Source of the DNA: Patescibacteria group bacterium
Lineage (GTDB): Bacteria > Patescibacteriota > Microgenomatia > Levybacterales > UBA12049
Length of the DNA stretch: 62,050 nt
Assembly (NCBI GenBank): GCA_038063195.1
Contig: JBBTVO010000011.1
Span: 1-62,050 of the forward strand
Direction of reading: 5' to 3'
The stretch's first letter is position 1. Every line of letters starts with the position of its first letter. The position numbers and the translations under genes were made by a program. The notes under the pieces were generated by a model. It saw only the letters and a program-made list of their open reading frames with translations, had not been told where the DNA came from and made no database searches. Shown piece after piece: positions 12,337-31,688 of this stretch.

Positions 12337-12436
12337 TAGTTCATCAAAAAAGAAAATGCCTATTACTTTTGCTCCCAGAGTACTTGCAGTTAATGATACT
12401 ATTTGATATACTTCATAACCAAATCTGGCATAGTAT

Positions 12437-12739
12437 ATGGAAGACAACGGAAATTCTATTGGATCTTTTATAGGTGGAGCAATAATCATAGGAATTGTTT
12501 GGTTCTTATTCTCAGGTTCAGGTAAATATGAAGGCGAAAATGCTGAATATTGGTATAACGAATATGACGCAGAAACTGCTGTATCAGAGAGCTATAAGAC
12601 AGCTCTTGAAGAAGCGAACTCAAATATTGAAGAGGCAAATGATATGATTGATAATGCAAAGTCTTATGATGATGCAGAAAGCCTTATAGACGGTGTGAAT
12701 AGTCTTGAAGAAATAGAAACAGTTGCTGAGCCTTATTAA
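12437..12739 (+). CDS. small membrane-anchored acidic protein, unknown function
   Basis: 100 aa. N-terminal TM helix (GGAIIIGIVWFLF) and acidic coiled C-terminus. The only plus-strand ORF in the array. Confidence 0.5.
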   Translation: MEDNGNSIGSFIGGAIIIGIVWFLFSGSGKYEGENAEYWYNEYDAETAVSESYKTALEEANSNIEEANDMIDNAKSYDDAESLIDGVNSLEEIETVAEPY

Positions 12740-12758
12740 ACCTCTCCTTTAGAAACCA

Positions 12759-12811
12759 AACCTAGCTTCGCTTTAAGGAATTTAGAAGAATATCACTAGG
12801 AAGTATTGGAA
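12759..12811. repeat. short copy of the cassette-junction motif
   Basis: aacctagcttcgctttaaggaatttagaagaatatcactaggaagtattggaa matches the 3' half of the 130-nt junction repeat. Confidence 0.8.
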
Positions 12812-12813
12812 TC

Positions 12814-13182
12814 TTATCTTGCCGTAGCTAAAGGATGTGGAAGTCCTAACAAAGACATTCCGATAGGACTTTTTGCAGGAGCAACTGGTTTTACTATTAT
12901 GTTGAGCTCAGGGTCGTTTGGCGTTTCTACACTAAATACAGTTTGCATGTCATCGCTTAATCTGTACTTAATTGTTCCAGACGGTGCCCTACCCTGAGAT
13001 AAAAGACGATTTAGAGCAGCGTCATATCTATTTTGTAAAGATGTCCCAACTCTTTCAGCGGTATCCAGGAAGGATGACTGAGCTTTATCCACAGACTCAA
13101 TTGTTCTGCGTAATTGGTCTGCTTTTTGTTCAAACTTTTCAAATGCTTTATGGTAGTTTTTGTCGCCTTCTGCGGTACTCAT
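12814..13182 (-). CDS. hypothetical protein
   Basis: 122-aa ORF with its own consensus promoter 9 nt upstream. No recognisable motif. Confidence 0.55.
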   Translation of the reverse strand: MSTAEGDKNYHKAFEKFEQKADQLRRTIESVDKAQSSFLDTAERVGTSLQNRYDAALNRLLSQGRAPSGTIKYRLSDDMQTVFSVETPNDPELNIIVKPVAPAKSPIGMSLLGLPHPLATAR

Positions 13183-14083: not shown

Positions 14084-14099
14084 GCTATAGGACTATTTG

Positions 14100-14457
14100 T
14101 GGAGATGTCGAGTAGTGAGCTCGAGTCCAAGAAGGTAAAGTAAAAACGTCTACAAGCTTATCTGATTTTTAATCTCGCAATATTCTCCCCAACCAGAAGG
14201 AAACAAATATTGCAAAGGTTGAAAGTTCGGATAAAAAGCCAACCAACTTCTTATCTATAGCTCAACTTTATTTATGCCTTATAAAATCTCGTTGAGAAAG
14301 ATTTTACAGACACTTCGACATGCTTAAGCAGCTAGTGCATAAGCGTATCTCGGGCTAGAATCTCTTCCAGCATTTATTTTTTGACTCTGTTTTACGACTG
14401 TCATCAAAGTCGGCTTGCAGTTTTTAAAGTACAATCCTGTCGATGCAATGCATCCCC
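14100..14457 (-). ncRNA. ssrA: tmRNA (SsrA)
   Basis: Minus strand starts GGGGATGCATTGCATCGACAGGATT. The 3' end ...GGACTCGAGCTCACTACTCGACATCTCCA pairs with the 5' end to form a 7-bp acceptor stem containing a G3:U wobble, the alanine identity element. Internal frame GCT GGA AGA GAT TCT AGC CCG AGA TAC GCT TAT GCA CTA GCT GCT TAA (14324-14371) encodes a tag ending YALAA. About 358 nt. CCA is not encoded (CAA follows). Confidence 0.85.
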
Positions 14458-15464: not shown

Positions 15465-15549
15465 CGGAGGGTATGGGAGTCGAACCCATTCAGGACTTTC
15501 GCCCTGCAGGTTTAGCAAACCTGTCTCGTGACCGTCTGAGTCACCCTCC
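15465..15549 (-). tRNA. tRNA-Ser(GCU)
   Basis: Minus strand GGAGGGT...CAGGT-TTGCTAA-ACCTG, long variable arm, ATGGG-TTCGACT-CCCAT-ACCCTCC-G. Class II tRNA with anticodon GCT. No encoded CCA. Confidence 0.85.
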
Positions 15550-16536
15550 ATTCCACTTTAACAATCTTGGATTATGAGTCCCTACTACTTCTAGATATCT
15601 CTCGACTTCGTTTGTATTATACAGCCAAACCTTCTTATTTTCTACTTTATCTATTATTTTTGGAGTAAATCCTAATTCTGCTAGTGTATTTTTAACAAAT
15701 AAGAGCAAGGGAGCTGAGCGATTTGAAAATGAGATTTTTTTATATTTATACTCCTTCCCGCCTACTTTATATCTATGAAGAAAAACTCCCCCATCAGTAT
15801 CCATGAGTCCCCTCAAACAAGAGATTCTAAAACTCTTTTCTGCCAATATCCAAATTGGCACATCTACTTGTTGTTTTACTTTGTTGCCAATTTTTAATCC
15901 TATTTGCAAAAGATATCTTACCAGAGATGATCCATTGTAATATAAGGCTACAGCATTACAGTCTTTCTTCTGGAAATGTTTCGGTGGTTCACCGAATAAT
16001 TTTCTCGAAAAACTTGATACAAAATTTATATATTCCCTATCTGCTATAGAATTTAAAGTAACCGTACACTGTCCTAGTGTTAGCCCACCGTCTCCAAGCA
16101 TAATTCCTACATATTCTGCTAGCTCTTTACAGAAGGCGGGTTGATTATACGTCTTAACTCTTGGTATAATTCCGTTTCTTCGAAAATTAGCGAGCGCTTT
16201 TGCTCCACCTTTTCTTCTCCCCTCCTCTGTTGCGGGACTTCCATGTTTTTTAAAACGCTCAATTCCTCCAATTTTGCTTGCCGCCTGCTTAGTTTTTTGC
16301 CACCTCGATATTAAAGATGCTTTTTCCTCCGGTAGAAAAATCTTAAACATCTCACAGAAAAGTTCTGCAGCAAAGAGAGTCATTGTTAGTCTCTCTCTTT
16401 TCCAATCCCTGAAGCTACGCGGATGAATTTTTGCAAATTCTGCCAATCGATCTGTATTTAAACCGCTTACTCTATAAACCGTGTCTAGAAATTCTTTCTG
16501 TTTGTTCGGAAGAAATTTGATTCGTAAGTTTTCCAT
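15541..16536 (-). CDS. LAGLIDADG-family homing-endonuclease-like protein with N-terminal HTH-like region
   Basis: Two LAGLIDADG motifs (YVGIMLGDGGL and LRGLMDTDGGVF). Start set at the ATG 16536 because the longer ORF extension only translates the antisense of tRNA-Ser(UGA). The stop overlaps the tRNA-Ser(GCU) 5' end by 9 nt. Confidence 0.8.
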   Translation of the reverse strand: MENLRIKFLPNKQKEFLDTVYRVSGLNTDRLAEFAKIHPRSFRDWKRERLTMTLFAAELFCEMFKIFLPEEKASLISRWQKTKQAASKIGGIERFKKHGSPATEEGRRKGGAKALANFRRNGIIPRVKTYNQPAFCKELAEYVGIMLGDGGLTLGQCTVTLNSIADREYINFVSSFSRKLFGEPPKHFQKKDCNAVALYYNGSSLVRYLLQIGLKIGNKVKQQVDVPIWILAEKSFRISCLRGLMDTDGGVFLHRYKVGGKEYKYKKISFSNRSAPLLLFVKNTLAELGFTPKIIDKVENKKVWLYNTNEVERYLEVVGTHNPRLLKWNGG

Positions 16537-16594
16537 ACGGCTTTGCTTATCCTCTATTACTATACCATATGCTATACTAAGTTTGAAATATTCT

Positions 16595-16681
16595 GGAGAG
16601 GTCGCATAGCGGACTAGTGCAATGGTCTTGAAAACCATCGTGGCAGAAATGCTACCGTGGGTTCGAATCCCACCCTCTCCG
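16595..16681 (+). tRNA. tRNA-Ser(UGA)
   Basis: GGAGAGG-TC-GCAT...ATGGT-CTTGAAA-ACCAT, long variable arm, GTGGG-TTCGAAT-CCCAC-CCTCTCC-G. Anticodon TGA. Confidence 0.9.
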
Positions 16682-16928
16682 CACAAACCCTTCGGTTGCT
16701 CCAAGTCCCACCCACTATGTCAACTTGGCTTGATGTGGCTTGCCAATAAAGTTAGAGAAAACGGACAAATCCCAAATATAGCCTGTAATGTTGGAAATAG
16801 CCGAAAATACCCTAAAGGTATTTGCTCTTGGTTCTAAGCTTTTGTAGAAAAGAGCTATTATTAGCCATATTTCATGAGATATTTTCGTTCTAAGCCTGTT
16901 TTCTCTATTGAAAGTATTGCCCGAGGAT

Positions 16929-18254
16929 TTATTGAAGATTAAGCTGGCGATCAGAAAGATTAAATTTCGAAGTAACTCCTTTAAGAATCTTTACTCTCTC
17001 CTCCGGTGTTCCGAATTGAAGAACATGTAGAAGATATTCCTTAAGCATATCTTTTTGTGTCTGGGTATATATTCTGGGACTTTGATCTCCAGTATTATGA
17101 GGAGTAATCTCAGCTCTTGGAATATATTCATCTATTACTGTTGCTTTAAGATGCTGAAGTCTTTTTACTTCTACTTCAAACTCTTGCATTAGGTATGAAG
17201 TACTGAGTTTAATCTTTGGAAGGTGACTAATGAGTTGCTTAATTAGTTCCTGTTCTGTGATATATGGTTCTGGACAATCATACTTCCTTATTCTATTGCA
17301 GTGGTAATAAATGTGAGAATTTACAATATTTGCTTTAGTTCTTCTGTATTTAATCTCTGCTGTTACACTTCCACCACAACTTCCGCAGATACAGATCTTC
17401 TTGAAAGGAAAGAGTTGTTTATTCCATTGTCTGGGAGCAACTTGTAGTTGAATCTGTACCTTCTCAAAGAGTGGTTTGGTAATTAATGGTTCATATGTTC
17501 CCTTATACCACTTGTCTCCATATCGAAACTCACCGTAGTAAAATGGGTTTTCTAGTGCAACATATATCTTACTAAGTGCCATCTTGTATCCATTCTTTGT
17601 GGTAAAGGAAATATCATCAAGCCACTTCTTTATCATTCTTCCTGAAAACCCTTGATAAGCTACTTTATTAAATATTTGTTTAATAACAGGTGCACGTTCT
17701 GGATCTAGTTCTACAGTTGATATACGGTTCTCCTTAAGAACATTACGGTAGCCTATTGGAGCAACACCAGGTCTTATTCCTATTTCACATTTATTCCTTA
17801 GTCCTCTTTTTACATTTACTCCTCTGTTATCATTCTCAAGTTTTGCCTGAGAGCAGAGAATCATAAGTAGGAACTTTTCATTGGGGTTATCAGAGAACGA
17901 TTGAGAGTATGTTTTAATATGAGCAAGTTTTCCTTGATCCATTAAATCAACTATTCTTCCTAAGTCTCCTGCATTACGGGACAGTCTGTCTGGTGCCCAA
18001 GTGAGGATACTGTTATACCTTCCTTCTGTTACTCCAAGAAGAAGCTTATTAAACTCTGGTCTTTGTCCTGATTCTTTGGCTGAATGGCTTTCTGTAATAG
18101 TTTCAGTAATATTTAGCTTTTCTCTCTTGGCAAGAAGTTGCATCTCCTTCAGTTGTCCGTCAATACTCATCGCTTGTCTTTCATCTGACTCAGAAGACTT
18201 ACGGACATACAGACAGTAGGCGATATTCTGATCTAGTTGTATATGCTTTTTCAT
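16929..18254 (-). CDS. large serine recombinase
   Basis: 441 aa. Resolvase-type N-terminus (YLYVRKSSESDERQAMSIDGQ, PDRLSRN), a recombinase domain, and a Cys-rich zinc ribbon (CICGSCGG...YYHCN...DCP). Confidence 0.85.
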   Translation of the reverse strand: MKKHIQLDQNIAYCLYVRKSSESDERQAMSIDGQLKEMQLLAKREKLNITETITESHSAKESGQRPEFNKLLLGVTEGRYNSILTWAPDRLSRNAGDLGRIVDLMDQGKLAHIKTYSQSFSDNPNEKFLLMILCSQAKLENDNRGVNVKRGLRNKCEIGIRPGVAPIGYRNVLKENRISTVELDPERAPVIKQIFNKVAYQGFSGRMIKKWLDDISFTTKNGYKMALSKIYVALENPFYYGEFRYGDKWYKGTYEPLITKPLFEKVQIQLQVAPRQWNKQLFPFKKICICGSCGGSVTAEIKYRRTKANIVNSHIYYHCNRIRKYDCPEPYITEQELIKQLISHLPKIKLSTSYLMQEFEVEVKRLQHLKATVIDEYIPRAEITPHNTGDQSPRIYTQTQKDMLKEYLLHVLQFGTPEERVKILKGVTSKFNLSDRQLNLQ

Positions 18255-18356
18255 AGTCAGGATAGACAGTACCGCAAGGGTTTTATGAAGTCAAGGAGGG
18301 GGATATCGCTAAAGCTCTCCGCTTAAACAGCCTAATTGTTTGATATAATACCCGAT

Positions 18357-19172
18357 ATGTCTAGGCAGGAAAGTAGTTCATCAAAGACAAGGAATGCCTG
18401 GTTTAGAGAAGCAACCTGCGGGAGTATTCAATCGATTACTAAAGTTCTACATGAGTGCTTTCCAGATTTGACTGCAGATCATATTACGGTGGCGGGAGTT
18501 GTAGGAGTAGCGATAGGCGCAGTTATTGCAGAAACACAAAATAGAAATACTGACAACAATTTGTCAAGAAAAATTCCAACAGTTTTATTTTTGGGTGCTG
18601 CATCGATCCTGGATGCATTTGACGGAGCAATAGCTAGATTAAGAGCTAAGGAAAGCTCTGGCGCTGATAATTCTCACGGACAGCTCGTTGATGTAATAGC
18701 GGATCGAATACAGGAAGCAACTTTAGCAACTTCTCGTGCTGTCTCTGCGAATAAGAGAGGCGACAGAGCTGGTGAGCTACTTGCGTATGTATCAGAGATG
18801 AGCAATGTCGCACCCAGTCTTATGCGCGCAATTTCGGAGACAAGAGGAGTGACAGTTCCGGAAGCAGGTAGAAACGTAATTGGATTTCTGGGAACAAGGG
18901 TTGGTAGATCAATGACTGGTATAGCGTCTACAGTATTTCCAGAAATACGAGGAATACCTACTCAAAAAATTATAGATATTTTAAATATTACTGCGAATGC
19001 GCTCACGACTTATGATCGTACTAAAACTGCATTTAGCGAGCCAGAAACAGACAATCTATTACCTTCTGATAAAAGAGAAGAGGCAGAAGTCAGAGCGAAA
19101 GTATTGACTGGAATCGCAGGAGCTACTATTATATCCGCAATTGGAACATACGTAGTACTAAGAAATAAATAA
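18357..19172 (+). CDS. CDP-alcohol phosphatidyltransferase family protein (phosphatidylinositol-synthase-like)
   Basis: Motif DAFDGAIARL...GQLVDVIADRI fits D-x2-DG-x2-AR...G-x3-D-x3-D. The ATG at 18357 is 7 nt downstream of TGaTATAAT. The ORF-track start at 18336 is a TTG. Confidence 0.7.
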   Translation: MSRQESSSSKTRNAWFREATCGSIQSITKVLHECFPDLTADHITVAGVVGVAIGAVIAETQNRNTDNNLSRKIPTVLFLGAASILDAFDGAIARLRAKESSGADNSHGQLVDVIADRIQEATLATSRAVSANKRGDRAGELLAYVSEMSNVAPSLMRAISETRGVTVPEAGRNVIGFLGTRVGRSMTGIASTVFPEIRGIPTQKIIDILNITANALTTYDRTKTAFSEPETDNLLPSDKREEAEVRAKVLTGIAGATIISAIGTYVVLRNK

Positions 19173-19203
19173 GAACTCTATCTATCGATGATACAATTGC
19201 TTG

Positions 19204-20565
19204 ATGAATAGTACGGAAAGACGATCAGGGCTTAGTGTCTTAATCCATTCTCCTTATCCACTCGACAAAAGTGCACCTGGAGGAGTAAGCAGTTATGTCC
19301 AAGAACTTGTACCACATCTAAGAGATTTGGGCTGTACCGTTACGACGGTTGCTCCAAAAGTTAAAGATGCGAATAACGATGCTGCGGAATATAACTTGGG
19401 AAGAACTATGTCAATTGAAGCCATCGGAACCAAGCTTGAAGCAGGAATTACTTTCAACAAAGGCCTTGCTAGGAATATTTTAAGTAAGGTAAATCCTGAC
19501 ATAATTATTGCTCAACAGCCTGAAATGCCTCCTAATTCTGGTCACACTTTTATATCTGCAATTCCAAAAACTGAAACAGGAAGAAGACTGATACCTATAG
19601 TGGGTCAATTTCATGCCGGTAGACCATTCGGCGGTCTTGATTTAAGAACAAGATTGCTTACTGAACTTGCACAAAGATTAAGGAGACCAATATTCAAATA
19701 TGGTGTGCCAGTGGGTTTAAGCGCAACTTACGTAGGCACTTTGCGGAATGCATTGGACGGGTGGTTGGCAATTTCTCATGGTACAGAAAATTATCCAAAG
19801 GAGTTTGCCCCAGGTAATTACGAAGTCATTCCTAATGGAATTGATGTTGAAACATTTACTCCCGAGGGACCCAAATTCGAAGAATGGCAGAAAGATGGGA
19901 GGAAAACTATTTTCTTTGCTGCTGGAAGACATGATAAAAGAAAAGGATTAGAGTATCTTGTGAAAGCATTTATTGAGCTTGTCAAAGAAGGTAATGATGA
20001 TATTAAACTTAAAATTACAGGTGAAGGTACTGAAACAAAAAAAATAAAAGAATTAATCGCTCGAGAAGGTGAGTTTGATATAGAATTTCTTGGGCTTTTG
20101 CCTCGAGAAGACTTAGCAAGAGCATATAGAAGCGTTGATCTTTTCGTAGCGCCTTCACTTGGAGGAGAGGGATTCACGAGAGTTATAGCAGAGGCAAGAG
20201 CAAGCGGAGCACCAGTATTGTGCACCAATATAGACGGACAAACAGAGGCAATAGGTCCAGATTTTGAGCCATTTATGGCAGCGCCTGCAGATTACAAAGA
20301 CTTGAAGAAGAAAGTTAAAAAAATTCTTAATTTGCCTGAAGAAGGCTTAGTTGGATTAAGGATGAGATCTATGGAGGATGCCAGAAGAGAGCTTGCTTGG
20401 CCAGGTATTGCGAAAAGAAATGAATCCTACTATCGTAGAGTACTCTCAGAGGTAGGTTATCCACCCAAATGGGAAACCAGAAAAACTTTTCTAACTAAGC
20501 TTATCCCACCGCTTGGAATTATTTATGTAAGCGATAGCGCCTATACGATCAAGGAATCTGCTTAG
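19204..20565 (+). CDS. GT4-family glycosyltransferase, PimA-like
   Basis: N-terminus IHSPYPLDKSAPGGVSSYVQELVPHLRDLGCTVTTVAP, IPNGIDVETF and GGEGFTRVIAEARASGAPVLCTNIDG parallel mycobacterial PimA segments as I recall them. Confidence 0.75.
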   Translation: MNSTERRSGLSVLIHSPYPLDKSAPGGVSSYVQELVPHLRDLGCTVTTVAPKVKDANNDAAEYNLGRTMSIEAIGTKLEAGITFNKGLARNILSKVNPDIIIAQQPEMPPNSGHTFISAIPKTETGRRLIPIVGQFHAGRPFGGLDLRTRLLTELAQRLRRPIFKYGVPVGLSATYVGTLRNALDGWLAISHGTENYPKEFAPGNYEVIPNGIDVETFTPEGPKFEEWQKDGRKTIFFAAGRHDKRKGLEYLVKAFIELVKEGNDDIKLKITGEGTETKKIKELIAREGEFDIEFLGLLPREDLARAYRSVDLFVAPSLGGEGFTRVIAEARASGAPVLCTNIDGQTEAIGPDFEPFMAAPADYKDLKKKVKKILNLPEEGLVGLRMRSMEDARRELAWPGIAKRNESYYRRVLSEVGYPPKWETRKTFLTKLIPPLGIIYVSDSAYTIKESA

Positions 20566-20645: not shown

Positions 20646-21218
20646 TTATGAAATTAACCTCCAGACAAACGGAACAATTCTTGTAGTCGGCAGTTTGTAT
20701 TTATAAGCCACTTTGTAATACCACCTAAGATACAATTTTTGTAATACTTCGAATTGATGATTAAATACAGAGTCCTTCTGTATGTTTATTAATCTGTTCC
20801 CAACTGCTCTTTCTATTGCAACACTTAAAAATGCAAATTCAAAATCATAATCAGGATCTGCGTAGTCGGATTGATTTTGTTTTGCTATAGAGAGCTGGAT
20901 CAACTCATTTTCTACAGAAAAATAAACTTTTATTCTTTCTCTATCAGGTAATTTGTTAGTAAGAGAGAAAGTTTTATCTAAAACTAGTGCTTCCCATAAA
21001 GGTTTGTAGGGAAGACTTAGTGTTCGGGAGAGTTTTGATATTTCAGGGACAGACTTCTTATTAAAATATTTACTTCGTAATTCTTTTGGTTTTAATTTAT
21101 TATCAAATTTATATTTTGCTCTTATTCCTTGTGATATACGATAAAAAGGGTAAGAACGGAGAAATAGGAAAAGTCTTAATTTCTTAAATGCTAAACGGGT
21201 TCTTCCTGCTTTTCTCAT
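20646..21218 (-). CDS. hypothetical protein (190 aa), last gene of the Fic/AEP-helicase module
   Basis: Basic N-terminus, no motif recognised. Co-oriented 88 nt downstream of the helicase gene. Confidence 0.55.
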   Translation of the reverse strand: MRKAGRTRLAFKKLRLFLFLRSYPFYRISQGIRAKYKFDNKLKPKELRSKYFNKKSVPEISKLSRTLSLPYKPLWEALVLDKTFSLTNKLPDRERIKVYFSVENELIQLSIAKQNQSDYADPDYDFEFAFLSVAIERAVGNRLINIQKDSVFNHQFEVLQKLYLRWYYKVAYKYKLPTTRIVPFVWRLIS

Positions 21219-21306
21219 AAGATTAGGGCAGGATAATAACTATATCAAGCTGATTACTAAGTTGTTACGGGATTATAATAGAATGCAGTAGGAGATTTTT
21301 CCCATG

Positions 21307-23454
21307 TTAAGATATCCATCCGCGTTTTCGATAATATGCCTGTCGTTTCTTAAATAGTCTATCAAAATATGTTACGTGTGGATCATGATAGTCGTAGACA
21401 ACTTGATTCTTTTTAGAACGTTGGATTCTCCCTATATATTGAGTAAGCTTCCCCTCAAAAGAAAATGGGTAGACCAAGAAAAGGCAATTAAGAGATGCCA
21501 GATCTATTCCCTCACCAAATAATTGTCCTGTCGCGACAAGTACTTGAAAATGACCAAGACTTATTTGTTCTAGTTTTAATTTTCTTTTAGATGCAGAATC
21601 TTCGCCCGTTAAAGTAATTACTTCGCACTTACTTTTAAGATAAAGATTTAGGACTTCTACGTGTTCTTTTCGTTCCGTTAAGACAAGAACTTTCCTACCA
21701 TCCTGTATTTGTTTCAGGACATCATCAATAATCATCTGATTTCTCGCACTGTCATAGATAAGTATTTTTGATAAAACCTCAAATGTGTCAGTCTTATAAT
21801 CAAATGGGGCTTCGAGTGAAGTTTTCTTTATATTAAGTAAAACGTCCTGATCACTTGACGGTGAGTTTTTCAGATCCGGATTTATTTCTACAAGTATATC
21901 ACCAATGTAAAAATAAATAAGTTTTTCATCGTTGTATTTTCTTTTTGGTGTTGCTGTAAGACCATACAAATAATATGGGTTGAATTGGACAATCAATTCC
22001 CTAAATGTTTTTGCGGGAATATGATGACATTCATCAACAATTACAATTCCGAATTGATCAGCAAAACTATCAATGTCTTTTATTTTGGTAAGACTTTGCA
22101 TCATGGCAACAGTGATTTGTTTTCCAATTATTTTTTTACTTCCTGAGATTTGGCCGATTTGGTTTTTTGGGATACCTAAAAATGATTGAATTCGCTCAAT
22201 CCACTGATCAAGTAATTGTTTTCTGTGGACAAGAATTAACGCAGGTTGAGACTTTTGGACAATAAGCTCAAGGCCAATAATAGTTTTTCCTGAGCCGGAC
22301 GGCGCAACGATAACTCCAGAATCATTTCCTTCTATTTCCTTGAGTGCTTGTTTTTGATAATCATAAAGAGTAATCTTCGAATTAAATTCACTTTGAGATT
22401 TACGTTTTCGCTCGTCAACTATTACGTGGGGTATTTCGTGTTCCCGGCAAAAATCTATGAGCTGAGGAAGGAATCCTCTTGGGATATGAACAAATTCCGT
22501 TGTTTCTGTAATTAATTTAAAATACTTTTCGGTTTGGTAGGTACTTACACCAATACGTTTTTTAATTAAATATTCGGTATTTAAAAAATTAAGATTCTCT
22601 CGTAAATATTTGACTAAAAGAGGTGTAAGGCTTGATTTTTGTATCCCGATATGATTCTTCAGGACGATATTTAATGCGTTTGATTTTATCTTCGATTTAG
22701 ATTTCGTTTTCTCAATTTGAGTGAAGTTTGACTCGACCAGCGAACTATAAAGTTCATCAAGTTGATTCTTGCTTAGTTTTTGAATTGTTCGTAAATATTC
22801 CCACTGATCCGGTATAATTTCGAACGTTTCGGGATTAAGAAAAACGGTGTTGCCTTTTTTATTTGATACTCCCTGAAAGGGAAGCGCAATTAAATTGCCA
22901 AAGCCCTGTCCGCTATGATAATCTTGATTTGGGAAAAGACGGTCAAAACCTACTTCCTTTTCAAACTCAGAAAGATTGAGAGCTTTTCTAATAAGTTCAA
23001 GCATGATGGTTCTTGATTTTTGCGCCAGATATTTTTCCTCAAAGAAAACCCATATATGAGAACCGATTCCCGACCGAGAGCGTTCGATGCATGCCGGAAT
23101 TTTATATTCCTTACAAACTTTAAGAAAATTAACGCTTTCCTTTTGCCAGTTTTCTTTATCAAAATCTGCAGCGATAAAATGAGAAGTATTATCGACAAGT
23201 AGTGGATAAATACCTATCGTTTGCACGCCAGCCAAATGTGACTGGATTACTTCTGGAGTAAGCATAAGTGGTTTTTTGTTAGGAAAGTCACTAAATTTTC
23301 CGCCCCTTGCTTTAAAAGCCATGAATTCTTTCCAGTCGAGTTCGTATGCAGGCGAATATCCGTTTTTACCGTTTTTCTCCCAGCGCCTAGCATACACATC
23401 GGTTCTACCTTTGAAAAGAGACATAAAAAGATTAATTTGTTTTGTATCAACCAT
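21307..23454 (-). CDS. archaeo-eukaryotic primase (PrimPol)-like domain fused to an SF2 DEAD/DEAH (ResIII-type) helicase
   Basis: N-terminal AEP motifs FIAADFDKENW (DxD) and SRSGIGSHIWVFF (sGxGxH). C-terminal helicase motifs APSGSGKT (I), VIVDECHH (II), LTATP (III) and QYIGRIQR (VI). Confidence 0.85.
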   Translation of the reverse strand: MVDTKQINLFMSLFKGRTDVYARRWEKNGKNGYSPAYELDWKEFMAFKARGGKFSDFPNKKPLMLTPEVIQSHLAGVQTIGIYPLLVDNTSHFIAADFDKENWQKESVNFLKVCKEYKIPACIERSRSGIGSHIWVFFEEKYLAQKSRTIMLELIRKALNLSEFEKEVGFDRLFPNQDYHSGQGFGNLIALPFQGVSNKKGNTVFLNPETFEIIPDQWEYLRTIQKLSKNQLDELYSSLVESNFTQIEKTKSKSKIKSNALNIVLKNHIGIQKSSLTPLLVKYLRENLNFLNTEYLIKKRIGVSTYQTEKYFKLITETTEFVHIPRGFLPQLIDFCREHEIPHVIVDERKRKSQSEFNSKITLYDYQKQALKEIEGNDSGVIVAPSGSGKTIIGLELIVQKSQPALILVHRKQLLDQWIERIQSFLGIPKNQIGQISGSKKIIGKQITVAMMQSLTKIKDIDSFADQFGIVIVDECHHIPAKTFRELIVQFNPYYLYGLTATPKRKYNDEKLIYFYIGDILVEINPDLKNSPSSDQDVLLNIKKTSLEAPFDYKTDTFEVLSKILIYDSARNQMIIDDVLKQIQDGRKVLVLTERKEHVEVLNLYLKSKCEVITLTGEDSASKRKLKLEQISLGHFQVLVATGQLFGEGIDLASLNCLFLVYPFSFEGKLTQYIGRIQRSKKNQVVYDYHDPHVTYFDRLFKKRQAYYRKRGWIS

Positions 23455-23528
23455 AATAATAGGCTAGATTATAGCATGCACGGTTACGCTTTTGAAGTTT
23501 AGGGGATAAGTTAGGAAAATGGTTCTGA

Positions 23529-24542
23529 TTATTCTGATAATGTTTGCTTCAACTCGGCGATTGTTAAGCGTTTCTCTTTTTGTAATTTCCTGATTCTTTT
23601 TATCCTCTCAATTGCACTAGGTGAATAAAGTTGATATCCTCCCTCTGTATAATTTTCTACTTTCAGGAGTCCTTCTTTTGTCCAATAGCGAAGAGTATGA
23701 ATTGTCTCCTTGGTTTCTTTGGCAAGCTCACCAATCTTCAGAAGATTGGCCTTGGGTTTAGTAGTAAATTCTTTTAGAACCGATTTCTTGTTTTCTAAGG
23801 CATTAAGGTATATATCAAGAGATCTATCAACAGCAGTATAGATTAATTCATAAAATGGCTGTAGCGAATGTTCGCGTCGTTCAATTTCAAATGCGCGAAG
23901 ATAAATCGTTCTATCCTCATTTCGAATAATTGCCATTGGGTAGCCATTCAATAGCAGGATTAAATTCATAAGCAACCTGGTAGTTCTACCGTTCCCGTCA
24001 ATAAACGGATGAATGCCTACGAATTTGAAATGAGCATCAGCTGCAATTTTTACCGGATGCACTTCTTGCTGAGCGGAAAGCCACTCAATAAATTCATTCA
24101 TAGCGTAAGGAATTGCGTGTGGTCTTGGAAATTCGGCATCAGAGCCACGAATAAAAACCTCTGTTTGTCTATATTTTCCGGCCCAATAGTTATTGATGCC
24201 CGTTAAAATAATTTTGTGAATCTCCAAAATGTCTTTCTCTGTAATGAACTGGTGTCCTTTTCGTTCTTTTGCCAGTTGTTTTATAAACTCAACAGCTTTT
24301 GCATGATTAATTGCCTCTAATTGATCTTTTAATGGTTTTCCGCTTATAACCGCTGAAACCCCCTTTTCTATCACTTCTGCTGTTTCGATTCGCGTTAGAG
24401 TATTCCCTTCAATAGCATTGGAAGAGTAAGTAATCTCAACCTTAAGCCACTCTTCAAGATTTTTTATTAATTCCTCAGGAAGTGGTTTATATGAATCAAG
24501 TTTTTGTTTTTTCTCTGTAAGTTTAGAAAGTAAAAGGTCCAT
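23529..24542 (-). CDS. Fic-family AMPylase-type protein with N-terminal autoinhibitory motif and C-terminal MerR-type HTH
   Basis: Fic motif HPFIDGNGRTTR. Inhibitory helix motif SNAIEG, which fits (S/T)xxxE(G/N). C-terminal LKIGELAKETKETIHTLRYWTKEGLL...YQLYSPSAIERIKRIRKLQ resembles a MerR N-terminal HTH. Confidence 0.85.
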   Translation of the reverse strand: MDLLLSKLTEKKQKLDSYKPLPEELIKNLEEWLKVEITYSSNAIEGNTLTRIETAEVIEKGVSAVISGKPLKDQLEAINHAKAVEFIKQLAKERKGHQFITEKDILEIHKIILTGINNYWAGKYRQTEVFIRGSDAEFPRPHAIPYAMNEFIEWLSAQQEVHPVKIAADAHFKFVGIHPFIDGNGRTTRLLMNLILLLNGYPMAIIRNEDRTIYLRAFEIERREHSLQPFYELIYTAVDRSLDIYLNALENKKSVLKEFTTKPKANLLKIGELAKETKETIHTLRYWTKEGLLKVENYTEGGYQLYSPSAIERIKRIRKLQKEKRLTIAELKQTLSE

Positions 24543-24552
24543 AACAACATAA

Positions 24553-24581
24553 AGTATAAAGCATCACTTTATGCTTGTCAA
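24553..24581 (-). promoter_or_regulatory. promoter of the Fic gene (TTGACA-17-TATACT)
   Basis: Consensus hexamers on the minus strand, 10 nt from the -10 element to the ATG. Confidence 0.6.
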
Positions 24582-24781
24582 GAACTAAATGACATTGTAA
24601 ATGAGACACCCCTTTTTAAGGACTGTCTCGTTTGTCTCATTCAGCCTCGAGGATGAGACACTATAAGGACAAAAATCTCAAGATTTGGTACAATACTACT
24701 CATGGAGCTTATGGGATAATTGGGTTCCAGACCCAGATGCTCCGCATTGACTACTTTCTTCAAATAAGTTAAATTAAACTT

Positions 24782-26218: not shown

Positions 26219-26593
26219 TTAAATTACTTTAATATCGTATTTTTTGATTTTCCTATCGTCTGTAAGAAGCGTAAGCCCTTCGGCTTTTGCCTGAGCAATA
26301 AGCATTCTGTCAAACGGATCATTGTGATAAATAGGAAGTTTTCCTAAATTTAGAACATGAGAAAGATTTATGGATAATAATTCAAAACCAGAAAAAGACA
26401 CCATTTCCGTTATTGTAGTTTTTAAAGGTAACTTTCCTGCAGTATTTTTAATGCTTATTTCCCAAAGAGTAGCAATGCTGACATAGATATGGCTATTTGG
26501 ATCTTTTAATATTTTCTGCGTTGACTTGTTGAGCTTCTTATCTTCGCTTAACCACCAAATAAAAATATGAGTATCTACCAGATAACTTTCCAT
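26219..26593 (-). CDS. vapC: type II toxin VapC (PIN domain)
   Basis: 124 aa. YLVDTHIFIWW N-terminus and the spacing of acidic residues are typical of PIN toxins. Follows the antitoxin gene. Confidence 0.8.
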   Translation of the reverse strand: MESYLVDTHIFIWWLSEDKKLNKSTQKILKDPNSHIYVSIATLWEISIKNTAGKLPLKTTITEMVSFSGFELLSINLSHVLNLGKLPIYHNDPFDRMLIAQAKAEGLTLLTDDRKIKKYDIKVI

Positions 26594-26601
26594 ATCTTAG
26601 G

Positions 26602-26835
26602 TTATTTACCATAAAACATTTTGTTTATTTCGGGATCTTCGTCTGTAAAGTTATCCGGCATAAAAATTTTCCCCTTCAAAAGCCCTGGCTTGCGGGGCTT
26701 TAATGGCTTCTTGTAGCCGATCAATTTCGCGACAGGTTTCCCTGCCTTTGCAATTATTACATTCTCGCCAGCAGCCACCTGCTCAATGAGTTTTGACAGA
26801 TTTGTTTTTGCCTGATGAATATTTATTATCTGCAT
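26602..26835 (-). CDS. Phd/YefM-type antitoxin
   Basis: 77 aa. MQIINIHQAKTNLSKLIEQVAAGENVIIAKAGKPVAKL is typical of the prevent-host-death family. Confidence 0.8.
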   Translation of the reverse strand: MQIINIHQAKTNLSKLIEQVAAGENVIIAKAGKPVAKLIGYKKPLKPRKPGLLKGKIFMPDNFTDEDPEINKMFYGK

Positions 26836-26962: not shown

Positions 26963-27009
26963 CTAAATTCCTTGACAAGGTCTTGAAAATATATCAGACT
27001 AAGGTAGGA

Positions 27010-28704
27010 ATGAAATTTTCTGCCCTAAAGTTACTTCTTTTTTTCTTTTCTATTTTCGTTCTTTTGGGATTTCTGGTAAAACCTGCTCAAGCCCAAACAG
27101 ATTACGAGACCCAGCCTTCTTCATCCGCTCCTACCTCCCAAACAACTACTGGCCATTACACTGCTCCGAACACTGAGGATGATGTACCGAACAATCTTCA
27201 CACATACTCTCAAAACGTGCTTATTGAGGTAATGGCGGCAGTTGCCTGCCAGCTTACAGGAATTGATCCCAGTAACCTTTCTCAAAAATGTCTGGGAATA
27301 AATCCTTCGACCGGAAAGATCGGGTATGCAGGAAGTGACGGAGGAGCGATAGGCTTTATGGGAAATATGATTGCGGTACTCTATGAACCTCCTGCACACG
27401 TCGGAGATTATGTTCAAAATCTTGCTCAGGATTTCGGAATAACCAATAAAACATACGCAAGACAGATAGATATCGTGCCTACTCTGAAAAAACCTTCAAC
27501 CACAGCAGATACCAGGGGAATTGGCTTTGAGGGATTAAGTCCTCTGCTGAATATTTGGAAAGCTTTTAGAGATATTGCTTATCTTCTATTTGTGCTCGTA
27601 TTTATTATATTGGGTGTTGCGATAATGCTGAGGGTAAAAATAGACCCCCGAACTGTAATGAGCATACAAAATCAAATACCCAAAGTTATCATTGGCATCT
27701 TGCTTGTGACATTTTCTTTTGCAATTGCAGGATTTCTTATTGACGTTATGTGGATTGCTATCTATCTTTTTTACGGTGCGTTCGCAAATATTAATATTGC
27801 ACCAGAGGGGGCACCCGCTGTCCTTCTTGATGTTTCTCAATTTAGCCCTCAAAACATAACTGGGACCACTCCTCTCGGGGCAATCGGAGGATTTGGAGGA
27901 ATAGGTGATTTATCAAGAGATGGTTCGGGTGCTATTAAAAGTGTTATCTCAAGCCTTTTCAGCAATAGTGCTGGATCAATTGTTGCTGCAATATTAGGAG
28001 GACTAATAGGAACTGCAAGCTGTGCCGCTACAGGACTTGGGCTCTTGATTTCACCTATCTGCGGTCTGATAGGAGCTGGAGCTGGGGCAGCTATTGGAGG
28101 GAGCTTAATATCCACCATTGGAGGATTTATTGCATTTATAATTATTGCGGTAGCACTTCTTTGGGCGCTTATCAGGGTTTGGTTTATTCTTCTTATGGCT
28201 TATATAATGATCCTACTTGATGTGGTATTTGCGCCATTCTGGATCATAGGAGGAATATTTCCCGGAAGCAAGATAAGCTTTAGTGGATGGCTTCGTGATC
28301 TCGTAGGTAACTTGGCTGCGTTTCCTGCAGTTTTTGTTATGTTCTTGCTTGGCAAAACTTTTATTGTCGCTTTTGCCAGCGGTCCGGGAGAAGCGTCTAA
28401 TTTCCTACCGCCATTTATAGGAAACCCTACCGATTACAAGTCGTTTGGAGCCCTGATCGGTCTTGGGATAATTCTTACGACTCCCAATGCTGTCAAGATG
28501 ATGAAGTCAGTCTTTGGCGCTCCACAAATCGATGTCTCTTCAATAGGTCAGGCAGTTAGCGCGGGGGCTGCGGCTCCGGGACGTCTAATTGGCGGAGGTG
28601 CATCTGCTATCTTTACTCCTCACTATAATAAAGAAGGTACTAAATTTGTTTATCCAGGTGGTCCACTTGGAAAAGCTATTAGGGCATTTGGTCTGGTACG
28701 TTGA
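27010..28704 (+). CDS. polytopic membrane protein, candidate VirB6/TrbL-like T4SS channel component
   Basis: Signal peptide MKFSALKLLLFFFSIFVLLGFLVKPAQA after an aaggtagga RBS. At least six hydrophobic helices and Gly-rich loops. Assignment rests on architecture and position only. Confidence 0.5.
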   Translation: MKFSALKLLLFFFSIFVLLGFLVKPAQAQTDYETQPSSSAPTSQTTTGHYTAPNTEDDVPNNLHTYSQNVLIEVMAAVACQLTGIDPSNLSQKCLGINPSTGKIGYAGSDGGAIGFMGNMIAVLYEPPAHVGDYVQNLAQDFGITNKTYARQIDIVPTLKKPSTTADTRGIGFEGLSPLLNIWKAFRDIAYLLFVLVFIILGVAIMLRVKIDPRTVMSIQNQIPKVIIGILLVTFSFAIAGFLIDVMWIAIYLFYGAFANINIAPEGAPAVLLDVSQFSPQNITGTTPLGAIGGFGGIGDLSRDGSGAIKSVISSLFSNSAGSIVAAILGGLIGTASCAATGLGLLISPICGLIGAGAGAAIGGSLISTIGGFIAFIIIAVALLWALIRVWFILLMAYIMILLDVVFAPFWIIGGIFPGSKISFSGWLRDLVGNLAAFPAVFVMFLLGKTFIVAFASGPGEASNFLPPFIGNPTDYKSFGALIGLGIILTTPNAVKMMKSVFGAPQIDVSSIGQAVSAGAAAPGRLIGGGASAIFTPHYNKEGTKFVYPGGPLGKAIRAFGLVR

Positions 28705-28706
28705 TC

Positions 28707-31688
28707 TTATTTTCTACCAGCAGCTCCCTTTGCTCCTGATATTTCATACGCCTCTGAGAATAGAGCTGTAAGTAAAAAGATAAAGAAAGACATTCCTCTT
28801 CTGGCTGACTGTGGAAGAAGCCCAAGCTGAAGTTTTTTCTCAAGTCCTTTCCAGAGCGTCGGATCGCCATTCATTAGAGTGTTTATTTCATCCGCCTTTG
28901 CTCTTGCAGTATCGCGGCTTATAGGCGTTGCTTGTGGACCAAAAATTCTTTCAATTTTTGATATAGGTCTTCTGAATATTCCTTTTGATATACCCAGGCT
29001 GTCTGACATTAGATCCTGAAGAGAAGCTATAAGAAATGTGCCTCTGGTGAACCTTATACACTTTGCTCTCCCAGGTTCTCCATTATACTGGCTTACTGCA
29101 TCACCAAAAGCTCTTGCTGCTTTGTCATTTTCCTCATCGTGCTCGACATTCTTCATAAATCCAACAAGACTCTGTCCTGCTTTCATTCCGTTTGCGGTAT
29201 CATTCCAGATTCTTACATAGGCATCTCCGCCCTTATCTGTCCCAAACATCTTTGAAAGCGGCACTATTCCTCTTTCTTTTTCCTCATCGCTTACCAACTC
29301 AAGCCTATCAAGCAATGCATCGTCAACGGTTAAAGTACGGTTATAAATATCCTCAAATTTAGTACTAGTCATAAGCTGATCAATCATTTTGTTATCCGTT
29401 ATATACTTTTGCATTGCTGCAAATATCCCTACTGCATCACTTACCGCTTCTTCACTACCCATTATCTTGAGAAAAGATGCTTTTTGTTCGTCAGTTAGAG
29501 TTGCTAAGTTAATTTGTTCAGGGGCCCACTTTTTCTTCCCAGCCGGGTTGCCTTCATCATCCAATACATCTATCTCTTTTCTAAAATATTCTTCCCTTAG
29601 CATTCTTATCGCCGCTCCGTATTTGTCTTTAAACTTGGTATATGCAGTGATCTTCCCCATATCAGGATGCTCTTCATCATTTTTGTTTATCAAACGGTTA
29701 TGTTCTTTTTCTTCGTCTGTAAGCCTCAGGTAGTCATCCACACCTTCAAGTTGTGCGTAAAGACCTTCCAGTTGGCCATTGTCTCTTTCTTTAAAAAGCC
29801 TTATTATTTCTTCCGGCCGATAGCCAGCTATTTTGTCCCATATTTGCGCCCTTGCTCTAACTCTTTCCCTACCTTCACCAATTCTAGGATCTTTAAGTCT
29901 TAAAAATAGCCCAAAATCCTGTGCATTTTCAAATCTGCTTTCTATTGACTTAAGTATTCCTTGTACCCTCCAGCTAGATGAGAAAAAGTCAGGAACAAGG
30001 AAAAGATCTCTAAAGAGCCTCGTCCCAAGCTCAATCTTATCCTCTCTGCTCATAGACCAGGTGCTTTTCCCTCTTGTTTTAAGATCTTCATCTGCCATGT
30101 CTATTTTCGTCTCATCTAAATACTTTCGTTCATCTTCAGTGTAGAGTCCGAATTTTGCTGTAAGAAGATCCTCAAGGTTATAGACATTAAGAGGCCCCCC
30201 CACAGCATCTGAAAAGTAAGCATCTGCGCCTTGCAAATGTTTTCCTCTTGCAGTAATAACTGCCTGACGCTGGGACGAAACGAAGACATCATAAGCTGTG
30301 CCTATTGCTCTTTTTATCTCTCCTTCCATCTCTGCCTGATTTTTTTCAGCGCTGAAGAAAATTCCAATCCCTCTTCCCGCCATATCTATCTGCTCTTTAA
30401 TTAGTTTATCCTGCAGCTTTGCTTGCATCTCAGGTGTTACATGGTTTCTCTCAGCCTTAAGTCTCTCGTTCTCAAGTAGCTCGTCAAATCTGTTAAACAT
30501 TGCCCCTACCTTCCCATCCTCAAAGCTCATACCTGTAAATAGTCCATGAACCTGAAGATTATAAGATTCCTGCTGTATTTGCTCTATGCTTCTATAACCT
30601 ATAGCTGATCGCATTTTTAATAAGTTAAGTCTGATTATTTGTAGTTTTTCAAATTCCTGTAAGCTTTTATTAAGCCTATCTGCTTCACCGGTATTACCTG
30701 TATCAGCTTCTACTGCCGCCTTTTCTTTAAGAATTCTCATAGCCTCACTTGCCTGTTGCAAAATACTGTTTACAATAGGTGAGTCAAATGCCTGTCCTTC
30801 GGCGGCGATACGGTATATAACGTCAAACTGACTATTCAACCAGGCTATTGGGTCTCTAGCGATAGCCTCTATTGCAGGCTGGCTTATGTAAAGACTGCTC
30901 GTTTCCCTTCTTCTCTCTTCCATGGCAGTTCTTTCATCAGCTCTAGTATTTGCTATCTTCTCATTTATTTTCTGCAATAGCATATCTCGATCAGCTTCTT
31001 GTCCTAGTGTAACTGTCATTGCTGCTACCTGATCGTGGATATCCGTGAGCCTATCTGAGGATACACCAAGACTTGCAAGATTATTATTGTATCGCTCGCC
31101 AATAGCCTGTATTCCTGCGTCTCCGATACCACTGATATCTATGGCGGACGGGCGTGGTCCTCCCGCAGCCATAGTCCCGGGGCCCATACTAAGCGGCTCT
31201 GGTTGTAAATGGCTGTTTGTTGCTCTCAGGATTAGTTTCCCAATATCCGCTCCTCTGTCTTGGAGCTCTGCTAACATTCCCCACCCTACCTGCTGGGCTT
31301 CAGAAGCAATACCTTCTCTCTCAAAACCTTCTGCATGTCCCATTGCTAGGCGTTGTCTCTCAGTAAGTAATTTTACGTAGGCGTCTTCAAGGTCAGCATC
31401 TGACCATTTATTAAGAGGGTTAATTTCTAACTTAGCTTTTAAATCTGCTGCGAATTCTTTAAGAATCGGGGTTTTTATATTCTCAAGGTCTGGTGATGCC
31501 CATTTTGGAGACTCGATAGGTGGCGTTTCCTGAATACTAGAACTTTTTATAGGTGGTCTCTCTGACTTACCTTGATCCATGAAAATATTTCCTCTTACAT
31601 CAAGTGTAGGAACAACCGGCGGGGTTGTCAAATCCGCCGAAGGCGAGACAGGCTTATTAAATTGTGCTCGAACTTCAAATTCTTTCAT
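28707..31688 (-). CDS. 993-aa tail-anchored protein of unknown function
   Basis: Long uninterrupted ORF. Pro-rich N-terminus, largely helical/charged body, single C-terminal TM helix (MSFFIFLLTALFSEAY). No NTPase or relaxase motifs seen. Confidence 0.7.
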   Translation of the reverse strand: MKEFEVRAQFNKPVSPSADLTTPPVVPTLDVRGNIFMDQGKSERPPIKSSSIQETPPIESPKWASPDLENIKTPILKEFAADLKAKLEINPLNKWSDADLEDAYVKLLTERQRLAMGHAEGFEREGIASEAQQVGWGMLAELQDRGADIGKLILRATNSHLQPEPLSMGPGTMAAGGPRPSAIDISGIGDAGIQAIGERYNNNLASLGVSSDRLTDIHDQVAAMTVTLGQEADRDMLLQKINEKIANTRADERTAMEERRRETSSLYISQPAIEAIARDPIAWLNSQFDVIYRIAAEGQAFDSPIVNSILQQASEAMRILKEKAAVEADTGNTGEADRLNKSLQEFEKLQIIRLNLLKMRSAIGYRSIEQIQQESYNLQVHGLFTGMSFEDGKVGAMFNRFDELLENERLKAERNHVTPEMQAKLQDKLIKEQIDMAGRGIGIFFSAEKNQAEMEGEIKRAIGTAYDVFVSSQRQAVITARGKHLQGADAYFSDAVGGPLNVYNLEDLLTAKFGLYTEDERKYLDETKIDMADEDLKTRGKSTWSMSREDKIELGTRLFRDLFLVPDFFSSSWRVQGILKSIESRFENAQDFGLFLRLKDPRIGEGRERVRARAQIWDKIAGYRPEEIIRLFKERDNGQLEGLYAQLEGVDDYLRLTDEEKEHNRLINKNDEEHPDMGKITAYTKFKDKYGAAIRMLREEYFRKEIDVLDDEGNPAGKKKWAPEQINLATLTDEQKASFLKIMGSEEAVSDAVGIFAAMQKYITDNKMIDQLMTSTKFEDIYNRTLTVDDALLDRLELVSDEEKERGIVPLSKMFGTDKGGDAYVRIWNDTANGMKAGQSLVGFMKNVEHDEENDKAARAFGDAVSQYNGEPGRAKCIRFTRGTFLIASLQDLMSDSLGISKGIFRRPISKIERIFGPQATPISRDTARAKADEINTLMNGDPTLWKGLEKKLQLGLLPQSARRGMSFFIFLLTALFSEAYEISGAKGAAGRK

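Follow-up and report, generated by a model that had tools for sequence, protein, structure and literature searches.

Three genes follow one another closely on the minus strand of a 62,050-nucleotide (nt) contig from a Patescibacteria metagenome-assembled genome (GenBank MEK7559011-13), and the question they raise is whether they act together as one system or only share a mobile stretch of DNA. The contig was analysed over its whole length and is called the window below. The GenBank names at the locus are 'Fic family protein', 'DEAD/DEAH box helicase family protein', 'hypothetical protein' and 'recombinase family protein'. A first-pass annotation, made from the letters of the sequence, had taken the genes for a conflict module consisting of a Fic-MerR fusion, a fusion of an archaeo-eukaryotic primase (AEP) with a superfamily 2 (SF2) helicase, and a protein of 190 amino acids (aa), in a genome resembling those of the candidate phyla radiation. 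The guess about the host is borne out by the assignment of the contig to Patescibacteria. As a conserved three-gene operon the module does not hold, and what survives of it is a looser association of two genes. Fic genes of many lineages recur directly upstream of relatives of gene 2, which belongs by homology to the family of the Escherichia coli enhancer of insertion sequence (IS) excision (IEE), and from this recurrence genes 1 and 2 probably work as a pair. The recurrent pairing is possibly a new finding, and the only one made here; genes 1 and 2 themselves join known families and classes.

The genes and their promoter-like sites are arranged as follows.

23529-24542, minus strand: gene 1, a Fic-MerR protein of 337 aa
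21307-23454, minus strand: gene 2, by homology an IEE-family AEP joined to an SF2 domain, 715 aa
20646-21218, minus strand: gene 3 (unk190), a protein of 190 aa
24553-24581, minus strand: promoter-like site of gene 1, TTGACA-17-TATACT, with 11 of 12 matches in a promoter scan
23468-23496, minus strand: promoter-like site of gene 2, TTCAAA-17-TATAAT with an extended TG, inside the gap between genes 1 and 2
21239-21268, minus strand: promoter-like site of gene 3, from the promoter scan

The coordinates of the three open reading frames (ORFs) and the gaps between them (74 nt between genes 1 and 2, 88 nt between genes 2 and 3) are exactly those of the first-pass annotation; position 24581, which it gave as the end of the three-gene stretch, is the first base of the promoter-like site of gene 1. 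No terminator-like site was found between the genes. The region around the promoter-like site of gene 3 aligns with the regions upstream of gene 3 homologues in L001 and L035 (L-numbers denote related loci used for comparison).

The identity of gene 2 is central to the argument. Its translation contains the motifs that had been read in it (AADFD, SGIGSH, GSGKT, DECH, TATP and QYIGRIQR), and its Pfam domains are AEP-TOTE (PF22548; 3.5e-83, residues 6-234), ResIII (1.7e-33) and Helicase_C (1.4e-09). The protein is co-linear from end to end with the 786-aa IEE of E. coli O157:H7, with 32% identity over 705 aligned positions, and all the AEP and SF2 residues named for IEE are conserved: D142, D144, H178, D216, K451 and R735 of IEE correspond to D97, D99, H133, D171, K390 and R676 of gene 2. 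In particular, gene 2 has AEP motifs A (hDhD, D97/D99), B (sxH, H133) and C (hD, D171), as well as the SF2 motif I lysine (K390), the DECH box and the motif VI arginine finger (R676), all co-linear with IEE. Misassigned catalytic residues, which would have undone the original reading, were found neither here nor in the canonical Fic motif of gene 1. By sequence, the closest solved structures are the CRISPR-associated primase-polymerase (PrimPol) 7NQD for the AEP part (1.6e-12) and XPB/Rad25 for the ATPase part, and the PADLOC PrimPol model matches gene 2 at 2e-68. By homology, then, the product of gene 2 would combine an AEP polymerase that is Mn-dependent and error-prone with an SF2 ATPase that depends on DNA.

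IEE (ECs1305/Z1568) has a Z1568-like AEP domain at its N-terminus and an SF2 domain at its C-terminus and occurs in more than 30% of E. coli assemblies (PMC9943667). In vitro, it is a Mn-dependent, error-prone DNA polymerase and a DNA-dependent ATPase that shows no DNA unwinding (PMC9943667), and it brings single-stranded 3' overhangs with microhomology of at least 4 nt together, extends them and joins them, for which both domains are needed (PMC9943667; preprint 10.1101/2023.06.07.543989). In vivo, it promotes the transposase-dependent excision of IS3, IS1, and IS30 family elements (PMC9943667; 10.1101/2023.06.07.543989). The E. coli homologue of gene 2 has 786 aa in O157:H7, is present in 1,849 of 5,426 complete E. 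coli genomes (34%), and is named 'TOTE conflict system archaeo-eukaryotic primase domain-containing protein' by the Prokaryotic Genome Annotation Pipeline (PGAP); it was identified as IEE because its length, host and prevalence agree with those reported for IEE. With a characterised member, at least 7,952 homologue clusters (E <= 1e-10) and a place in a third of complete E. coli genomes, this fusion of AEP and SF2 is no unusual orphan.

The 120 best matches to gene 2 are mostly of about 700-750 aa and 54-93% identical to it, and come from Patescibacteria, Mucilaginibacter, Omnitrophota, Actinomycetota, Desulfobulbus and other taxa. Full-length matches were found in 98 plasmid records and in none of 50,697 phage records, where 2,843 matches span the helicase half only; IMG/VR gave a single partial match. 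A phage origin of gene 2 was rejected on these grounds. Two further candidates were set aside: YfjK/AbpB of E. coli K-12, which occupies the same island slot as the E. coli homologue of gene 2 but shows only trivial P-loop similarity in BLASTP (E = 0.21), and Ppol-Hel of Thermus ICETh2 (PMC7693054), a different PrimPol with a DnaG-like helicase, which is irrelevant here.

The neighbourhood of IEE-like genes was surveyed in close relatives (at least 49% identity) whose flanking sequence was long enough, which make up 22 distinct lineages, a small sample that is uncorrected for phylogeny. A Fic gene lies within 3 kb of the IEE-like gene in 11 of these lineages (the window, L001, L002/13, L003, L007, L009, L010/11, L012, L014/16, L018 and L039); Fic and AEP-helicase genes are thus found near each other in genomes other than the one in which they were first noticed. 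The Fic partners belong to at least six lineages that are 25-48% identical to one another, and their types are Fic-MerR, a 206-210-aa form with the motif HPFxDYNGR, a class II Fic with a winged helix, a DUF4172-Fic protein with a winged helix-turn-helix (wHTH), a form in which the catalytic His is replaced by Gln, and a form with the motif HPYLDGNGR. The other 11 lineages have as neighbours Pif1-like helicases, DUF3800, AbiE, HicB/ParE, PemK/MazE, SLFN-AlbA_2, HEPN/MNT, or small helix-turn-helix (HTH) proteins.

Several of the pairs are tightly joined. The Fic gene of L007 runs into the helicase gene with a 4-nt ATGA overlap; in L009, L010 and L012, Fic is followed by an ORF of 85-97 aa and then by the helicase, again with 4-nt ATGA overlaps; and the junction gap is 6 nt in L018 and 28 nt in L014/16. 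The IEE literature consulted (PMC9943667; 10.1101/2023.06.07.543989) was found to contain no mention of Fic; the pairing of Fic with IEE-like genes is plausible and, so far as found, apparently undescribed.

Some details of these loci deserve mention in their own right. The small ORFs (L009:948-1205, L010:6738-6995 and L012:6711-7004) have no Pfam family, and their position resembles that of AS1, the antitoxin of the Fic protein SoFic. L016, which comes from a cultured isolate (Mucilaginibacter sp. JRF), has two DUF4172-Fic-wHTH paralogues (5852-6973 and 11821-12921; 91% identical) within 6 kb, one of them directly upstream of an AEP-helicase gene that appears split into ORFs of 606 and 357 aa in the assembly. 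A second recurrent neighbour of the AEP-helicase, seen in three lineages, is a divergent gene directly upstream for a Pif1-like helicase (PIF1/AAA_30 with HTH_40; L003:5212-6927, L022:5216-6919 and L024:2343-4019; 67-85% identical).

In the window, the surroundings of genes 1 and 2 suggest how the pair arrived. These features are needed to follow the argument:

24592-24752, minus strand: conserved non-coding boundary element (about 110-160 nt), from blastn, regular expressions and alignments
18336-20565, plus strand: second cargo block, with a CDP-alcohol phosphatidyltransferase-like gene (18336-19172) and a GT4 glycosyltransferase gene (19201-20565), both from Pfam
16929-18254, minus strand: large serine recombinase of the integrase type (Pfam Resolvase, Recombinase and Zn_ribbon_recom; PHROG integrase, 4.8e-56)
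16595-16682, plus strand: tRNA-Ser(tga), adjoining the recombinase gene, from ARAGORN and Rfam

The homology of the window to L001 and L035 jumps from about 24599 to 21248 and thereby brackets exactly the Fic-MerR and AEP-helicase genes, which argues that genes 1 and 2 are one insertion of about 3.3 kb between the boundary element and the promoter region of gene 3. The same pair is carried by L039. The boundary element itself is 79-88% identical in L001, L035 and L037 (blastn) and was also detected in L002, L039, L045, L046, L047 and L053 (regular expressions and alignments). It lies directly upstream of gene 3 homologues in L001 and L035, precedes Fic-MerR in L039, L045-47 and L053, and precedes a block of a short Fic gene and an AEP-helicase gene in L002. 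It contains an inverted repeat with invariant arms, TGTCTCA-N14-TGAGACA, which is present once in the window, and extra copies of GAGACA. Because the arms are invariant and there is almost no covariation, the element is more likely a protein-binding DNA site than an RNA; it may be a binding site of the recombinase or of a regulator, or the boundary of the element. A structured RNA was considered and rejected (no Rfam or ARAGORN call, a fold z-score of -2.9 and covariation almost absent). The 5' part weakly resembles a tRNA T-arm and acceptor strand, and 18 of 26 positions are identical by eye to the 3' end of tRNA-Ser, where the local alignment itself is weak; for a direct repeat of the 3' end of a tRNA of the window, as in a classical attachment (att) site, the local alignments were weak (scores 15-27), and this reading was not adopted.

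By sequence, gene 1 encodes a FICD-like Fic AMP-transferase of class II with a DNA-binding domain. The canonical motif HxFx(D/E)GNGRxxR (HPFIDGNGRTTR, residue 178) and an inhibitory motif of the (S/T)xxxE(G/N) type (SNAIEG, residue 41) can be read in the translation, as had been reported, and the C-terminus consists of a MerR-type HTH and a coiled coil; Pfam finds Fic (4e-26, residues 100-196) and MerR_1 (3e-18, residues 269-336). The solved structures closest to the Fic core are FICD (7e-40), then BtFic and CdFic. The PADLOC models PDC-S04 and SoFic match at about 1e-29 to 1e-30 (SoFic at 3.4e-29 over residues 7-290); as judged by NCBIfam NF046030, which gives 37.9 bits against a cut-off of 550, gene 1 is not an orthologue of SoFic. 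At least 120 clusters share the Fic-MerR architecture (61-96% identical, about 338 aa); their sources are Patescibacteria and bins that bear the labels Methylomirabilota, Limnocylindrales and Sulfuricurvum.

The promoter of gene 1 bears signs of self-regulation. Within its 17-nt spacer and over the -10 box there is a dyad, ATAAAG-N5-CTTTAT (24556-24572), and both the promoter TTGACA-17-TATACT and the dyad are kept upstream of Fic-MerR in 13 of 13 homologue loci examined. The dyad is presumed to be the operator of the MerR domain, since its position is typical of MerR operators. The HTH, the coiled coil and a dyad between -35 and -10 are those of the MerR family; the C-terminal location of the domain, the lack of an effector-binding domain and the spacer of 17 nt, as opposed to 19-20 nt, are atypical. 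The dyad occurs in a single copy in the window, at the promoter of gene 1, and a shared MerR operator upstream of gene 2 was rejected for that reason. In 14 analysed metagenome loci, the neighbours of Fic-MerR are mutually unrelated and include SecA and ribosomal protein S2; an AEP-helicase adjoins Fic-MerR in the window and in L039 only. It seems from these gene orders and the conserved promoter that gene 1 is a stand-alone, SoFic-like, self-regulated Fic unit that usually occurs without gene 2. At L040 (2565-3543), Fic-MerR is followed by the first 30 codons of the AEP-helicase gene (90% identical) and then by an ORF with a weak match to a serine-recombinase zinc ribbon; the locus looks like a decayed copy of the same island.

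Gene 3 has different associations. It had been described as lacking any recognisable motif, and indeed it has no match in Pfam, PADLOC, NCBIfam or PHROGs. Its 73 homologues of about 190 aa all come from Patescibacteria-type contigs and carry no Pfam domain; an exhaustive profile search yielded 98 representatives, among which 10 longer forms were scanned and showed no informative Pfam domain. The AlphaFold2 model is predicted to be all-helical (pLDDT 66.9), and Foldseek returned no match with an E-value below 2 in PDB or BFVD. The company that gene 3 keeps is more telling. In L037/38 it is directly followed by a large serine recombinase (89% identical to that of the window) and then by a tRNA gene; in L035/36 two small genes separate it from the recombinase; and in L033 it comes after the recombinase, on the border of a prophage-like block (HNH, ParB-methylase, terminase). 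AEP-helicase and Fic genes are absent from all these loci. It follows that the conserved unit is gene 3, a variable cargo, the recombinase and a tRNA, and gene 3, judged by gene order, belongs to the backbone of a serine-recombinase element and does not partner gene 2. At a guess, its product could act as a regulator or as a recombination directionality factor.

The recombinase of the window had been noticed on the same segment by the first-pass annotation and was found at 16929-18254. Its homologues, 89-95% identical, adjoin gene 3 and a tRNA gene in L001, L035 and L037, and the adjacency of recombinase and tRNA is kept in L035 and L037, as expected of an element with its integrase at one end; tRNA-Ser(tga) is presumed to be the integration end. 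The second cargo block sits between gene 3 and the recombinase gene and is absent at that position in L035 and L037. Its GT4 glycosyltransferase passes the Pfam 'GT4-conflict' model PF20706 (36.2 bits, cut-off 26). A homologous protein of 140-180 aa without a Pfam family is encoded directly after the AEP-helicase gene in three related loci (L002:10135-10554, L039:7832-8257 and L004:3752-4303); its gene lies just ahead of a gene similar to gene 3 in L002 and L039, is missing from the window, and is present as a fragment in L045.

Other features of the window were recorded on both sides of this element. An ORF with a LAGLIDADG domain (15541-16590, minus strand) lies directly beside tRNA-Ser(tga); it had been listed as an ORF of 387 aa that runs spuriously into the tRNA gene, and the same pair of Pribosyltran and LAGLIDADG genes is also found near the AEP-helicase gene of a Daviesbacteria genome (L066). 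A tmRNA gene (14097-14457, minus strand; Rfam, 107 bits) is not reported by ARAGORN. A Bro-N protein, of a kind usual in phages and mobile elements, is encoded at 11470-12489 (minus strand), about 4.4 kb from the recombinase gene. A PIN (VapC-like) toxin and a Phd/YefM antitoxin (26219-26835, minus strand) lie beside tRNA-Ser(gga). Two large convergent genes (26983-31688; 573 and 993 aa) have no Pfam domain, and the product of the first resembles a membrane protein with several passes. L001 has both of them beside the island, while L035 and L037 have the first (43-56% identity).

The explanation favoured here, with modest confidence, is that the Fic-HTH protein and the IEE-like enzyme work as a pair and are carried as cargo of the recombinase element. 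The 3.9-kb stretch would be a patchwork of accessory genes that each have a promoter-like site to themselves, and would form part of the cargo of a small integrative element in a Patescibacteria host, laid out as tRNA-Ser, large serine recombinase, cargo, gene 3 and boundary element; genes 1 and 2 would have entered between the last two as a single 3.3-kb insertion. The MerR domain of gene 1 would bind the dyad in its own promoter and repress gene 1, and the glutamate of SNAIEG would block AMPylation at the FICD-like Fic site pending a trigger. Once triggered, Fic may modify a core target and arrest growth, as SoFic, by analogy, does through EF-Tu. Gene 2 might act on the ends or replication intermediates of mobile or invading DNA, bringing them together and extending them. 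Fic-HTH would probably serve as the regulator, the toxin or both, and the IEE-like enzyme as the DNA-acting arm. The coupling is loose in the window because the promoter-like sites are separate and no operator is shared, and for this reason the paired model is leaned towards only guardedly.

The opposite view is that Fic-MerR and the IEE-like gene do not cooperate, being unconnected pieces of selfish or defensive cargo which came to rest in the same insertion hotspot. Each gene has a promoter-like site of its own, the Fic-MerR operator is found at its own promoter only, and Fic-MerR homologues adjoin unrelated and even housekeeping genes. IEE-like genes, for their part, also neighbour HEPN/MNT, AbiE, ParE/HicB, HigBA, PemK/MazE, SLFN-AlbA_2, DUF3800 and Pif1-like genes, and SoFic is a stand-alone defence gene with AS1 as its sole reported partner (PMC12249575). 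A number of observations weigh against pairing in the same manner, apart from the size of the survey and its lack of phylogenetic correction. None of eight loci of the distant IEE clade (E. coli, Acinetobacter, Massilia, Desulfobulbus and others) has a Fic gene beside the IEE gene, the neighbours there being Gp2/YfjJ-like, HigBA, AAA and Phage_rep_org_N genes; none of the 14 Fic-MerR metagenome loci has a full AEP-helicase neighbour, and one has a remnant. Taken together, these two counts mean that the pairing could be co-residence on islands. Moreover, the pair of the window is split by the 74-nt gap with its own promoter-like site, and a gene on the opposite strand separates Fic-MerR from the AEP-helicase gene in L039. 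The boundaries of the element are drawn from synteny, no att repeat having been found, and the activities of gene 2 are read across from IEE at 32% identity. Transposases of the IS3, IS1, IS30, IS66, IS110 and IS4 types were undetected in the window by tblastn with nine transposase and integrase queries, a search of low sensitivity, so a role in IS excision has no obvious substrate here. Against independent residence stands the finding that Fic is by far the most recurrent neighbour, in 11 of 22 lineages and from at least six Fic lineages. In six lineages, the upstream gene (Fic or the small ORF that follows it) overlaps the helicase start by 4 nt or ends at most 28 nt away, which is unexpected from co-residence alone, and the pair in the window is a single clean insertion. 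Independent residence is thus regarded as unlikely, though it is an alternative to be taken seriously.

Two further explanations fare worse. Fusions of an AEP with a helicase are typical replicases of mobile elements, and gene 2 might be the replicative primase-helicase of an excised circular element, with Fic-MerR as its addiction toxin. Serine recombinases within a few kb of the helicase gene in the window, L001, L026 and L039 would fit this role, as would a distant homologue of 992 aa that follows a Phage_rep_org_N gene in L021. However, the minimal versions of the element in L035 and L037 lack gene 2, and IEE of E. coli shows no unwinding and is carried in the cargo slot of islands already equipped with a YfjI-type replication protein. 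The phage records, with no full-length homologue, and the one partial match in IMG/VR also speak against it, and the AEP-helicase is not consistently embedded in replication modules, its neighbours being mostly toxin-antitoxin or abortive-infection genes; the replicase reading is improbable. Even less credible is the three-gene defence operon of the TOTE type as first proposed, with the AEP-helicase sensing nucleic acid or priming on it, Fic-MerR serving as effector and the 190-aa protein as a third part. As cited second-hand in the YprA preprint, TOTE stands for TPR, OB, TBP and Effector. The label was apt as annotation, both Pfam and PGAP giving the AEP domain this name, and the window, L001, L002 and L039 each contain members of all three gene families. 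As a system, it fails: no TPR, OB (CSD/S1) or TBP gene was found in a Pfam scan of 17 neighbouring proteins, nor TPR, CSD/S1 or TBP in the precomputed Pfam lists of the annotated related loci. The order and strand of the three genes vary in every locus, gene 3 homologues accompany the recombinase without genes 1 and 2 in L033, L035 and L037, and the 140-aa gene between the helicase gene and the gene 3-like gene of L002, L004 and L039 is missing from the window. The operon is unsupported because gene 3 occurs without the helicase and Fic genes, the promoter-like sites are separate, and Fic-MerR mostly lacks an AEP-helicase neighbour.

A wider form of the paired model can be put forward tentatively. 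Fic-HTH and the IEE-like PrimPol-ATPase might constitute a two-gene system, widespread and so far undescribed, that is directed at mobile elements or phages and in which AMPylation controls, or is triggered by, the end-joining polymerase. Tight operons are seen in Mucilaginibacter, Omnitrophota and several Patescibacteria, and the Fic-MerR version of the window would be a loosened variant. IEE occurs in about a third of E. coli genomes and shapes the IS content of pathogenic strains; its close relatives live in toxin-antitoxin and defence neighbourhoods across phyla, and in half of the sampled lineages Fic-HTH genes precede them, often with stop and start codons that overlap. This raises the hypothesis that enzymes of the IEE family act as regulated effectors against mobile DNA and do not serve housekeeping repair, and if the two-gene form of it is true, the 'IS-excision enhancer' family is the DNA-acting arm of an immune system. 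The tight operon of the cultured Mucilaginibacter sp. JRF makes the hypothesis practical to test. Should the pairing amount to co-residence and no more, the locus is a small integrative element's cargo region of the ordinary kind. In annotation, gene 2 should be listed as IEE-like, gene 1 as a SoFic-like, self-regulated Fic, and gene 3 as belonging to the recombinase element.

How the locus compares with known systems can be stated for four of them. With TOTE systems it shares the AEP domain of gene 2, which falls in the Pfam family named after them; on the present evidence, the locus of gene 2 is not a TOTE system, because the TPR, OB and TBP partners were not found here or in the related loci examined, and the label is the name of a domain family and not evidence of a system. 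The CRISPR-associated primase-polymerases (CAPP) include the closest solved AEP (7NQD). The NCBIfam CAPP model gives gene 2 only 96.5 bits against a cut-off of 200, and the helicase partner of gene 2 differs; no Cas family was seen in the Pfam scan of the 17 neighbouring proteins, and no dedicated repeat or CRISPR scan was run.

With IEE the gene 2 protein shares its two-domain architecture over the whole length, and both proteins are encoded on integrative or mobile DNA amid accessory genes. The window protein differs in lacking the N-terminal extension of about 45 residues of IEE, and its gene differs in having no IS3-, IS1- or IS30-type transposase nearby (tblastn) and in its Fic neighbour, the E. 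coli gene following instead a Gp2/YfjJ-like gene. For gene 1, the nearest parallel is SoFic of Shewanella oneidensis, an anti-phage abortive-infection Fic whose reported partner is the small downstream antitoxin AS1 (PMC12249575), and which AMPylates EF-Tu and binds its own promoter (bioRxiv 10.64898/2026.07.09.737422). The two are not orthologous; the Fic core of gene 1 is nearer to FICD, BtFic and CdFic; the DNA-binding domain is a winged helix in SoFic and a MerR-type HTH with a coiled coil in gene 1; and no AS1-like small ORF follows gene 1, the 74-nt gap holding no ORF. What they have in common is the canonical Fic motif, preceded by an N-terminal inhibitory motif, (S/T)xxxE(G/N), and a DNA-binding domain at the C-terminus, together with signs of self-regulation at their own promoters, in the form of demonstrated binding for SoFic and of a conserved dyad for gene 1.

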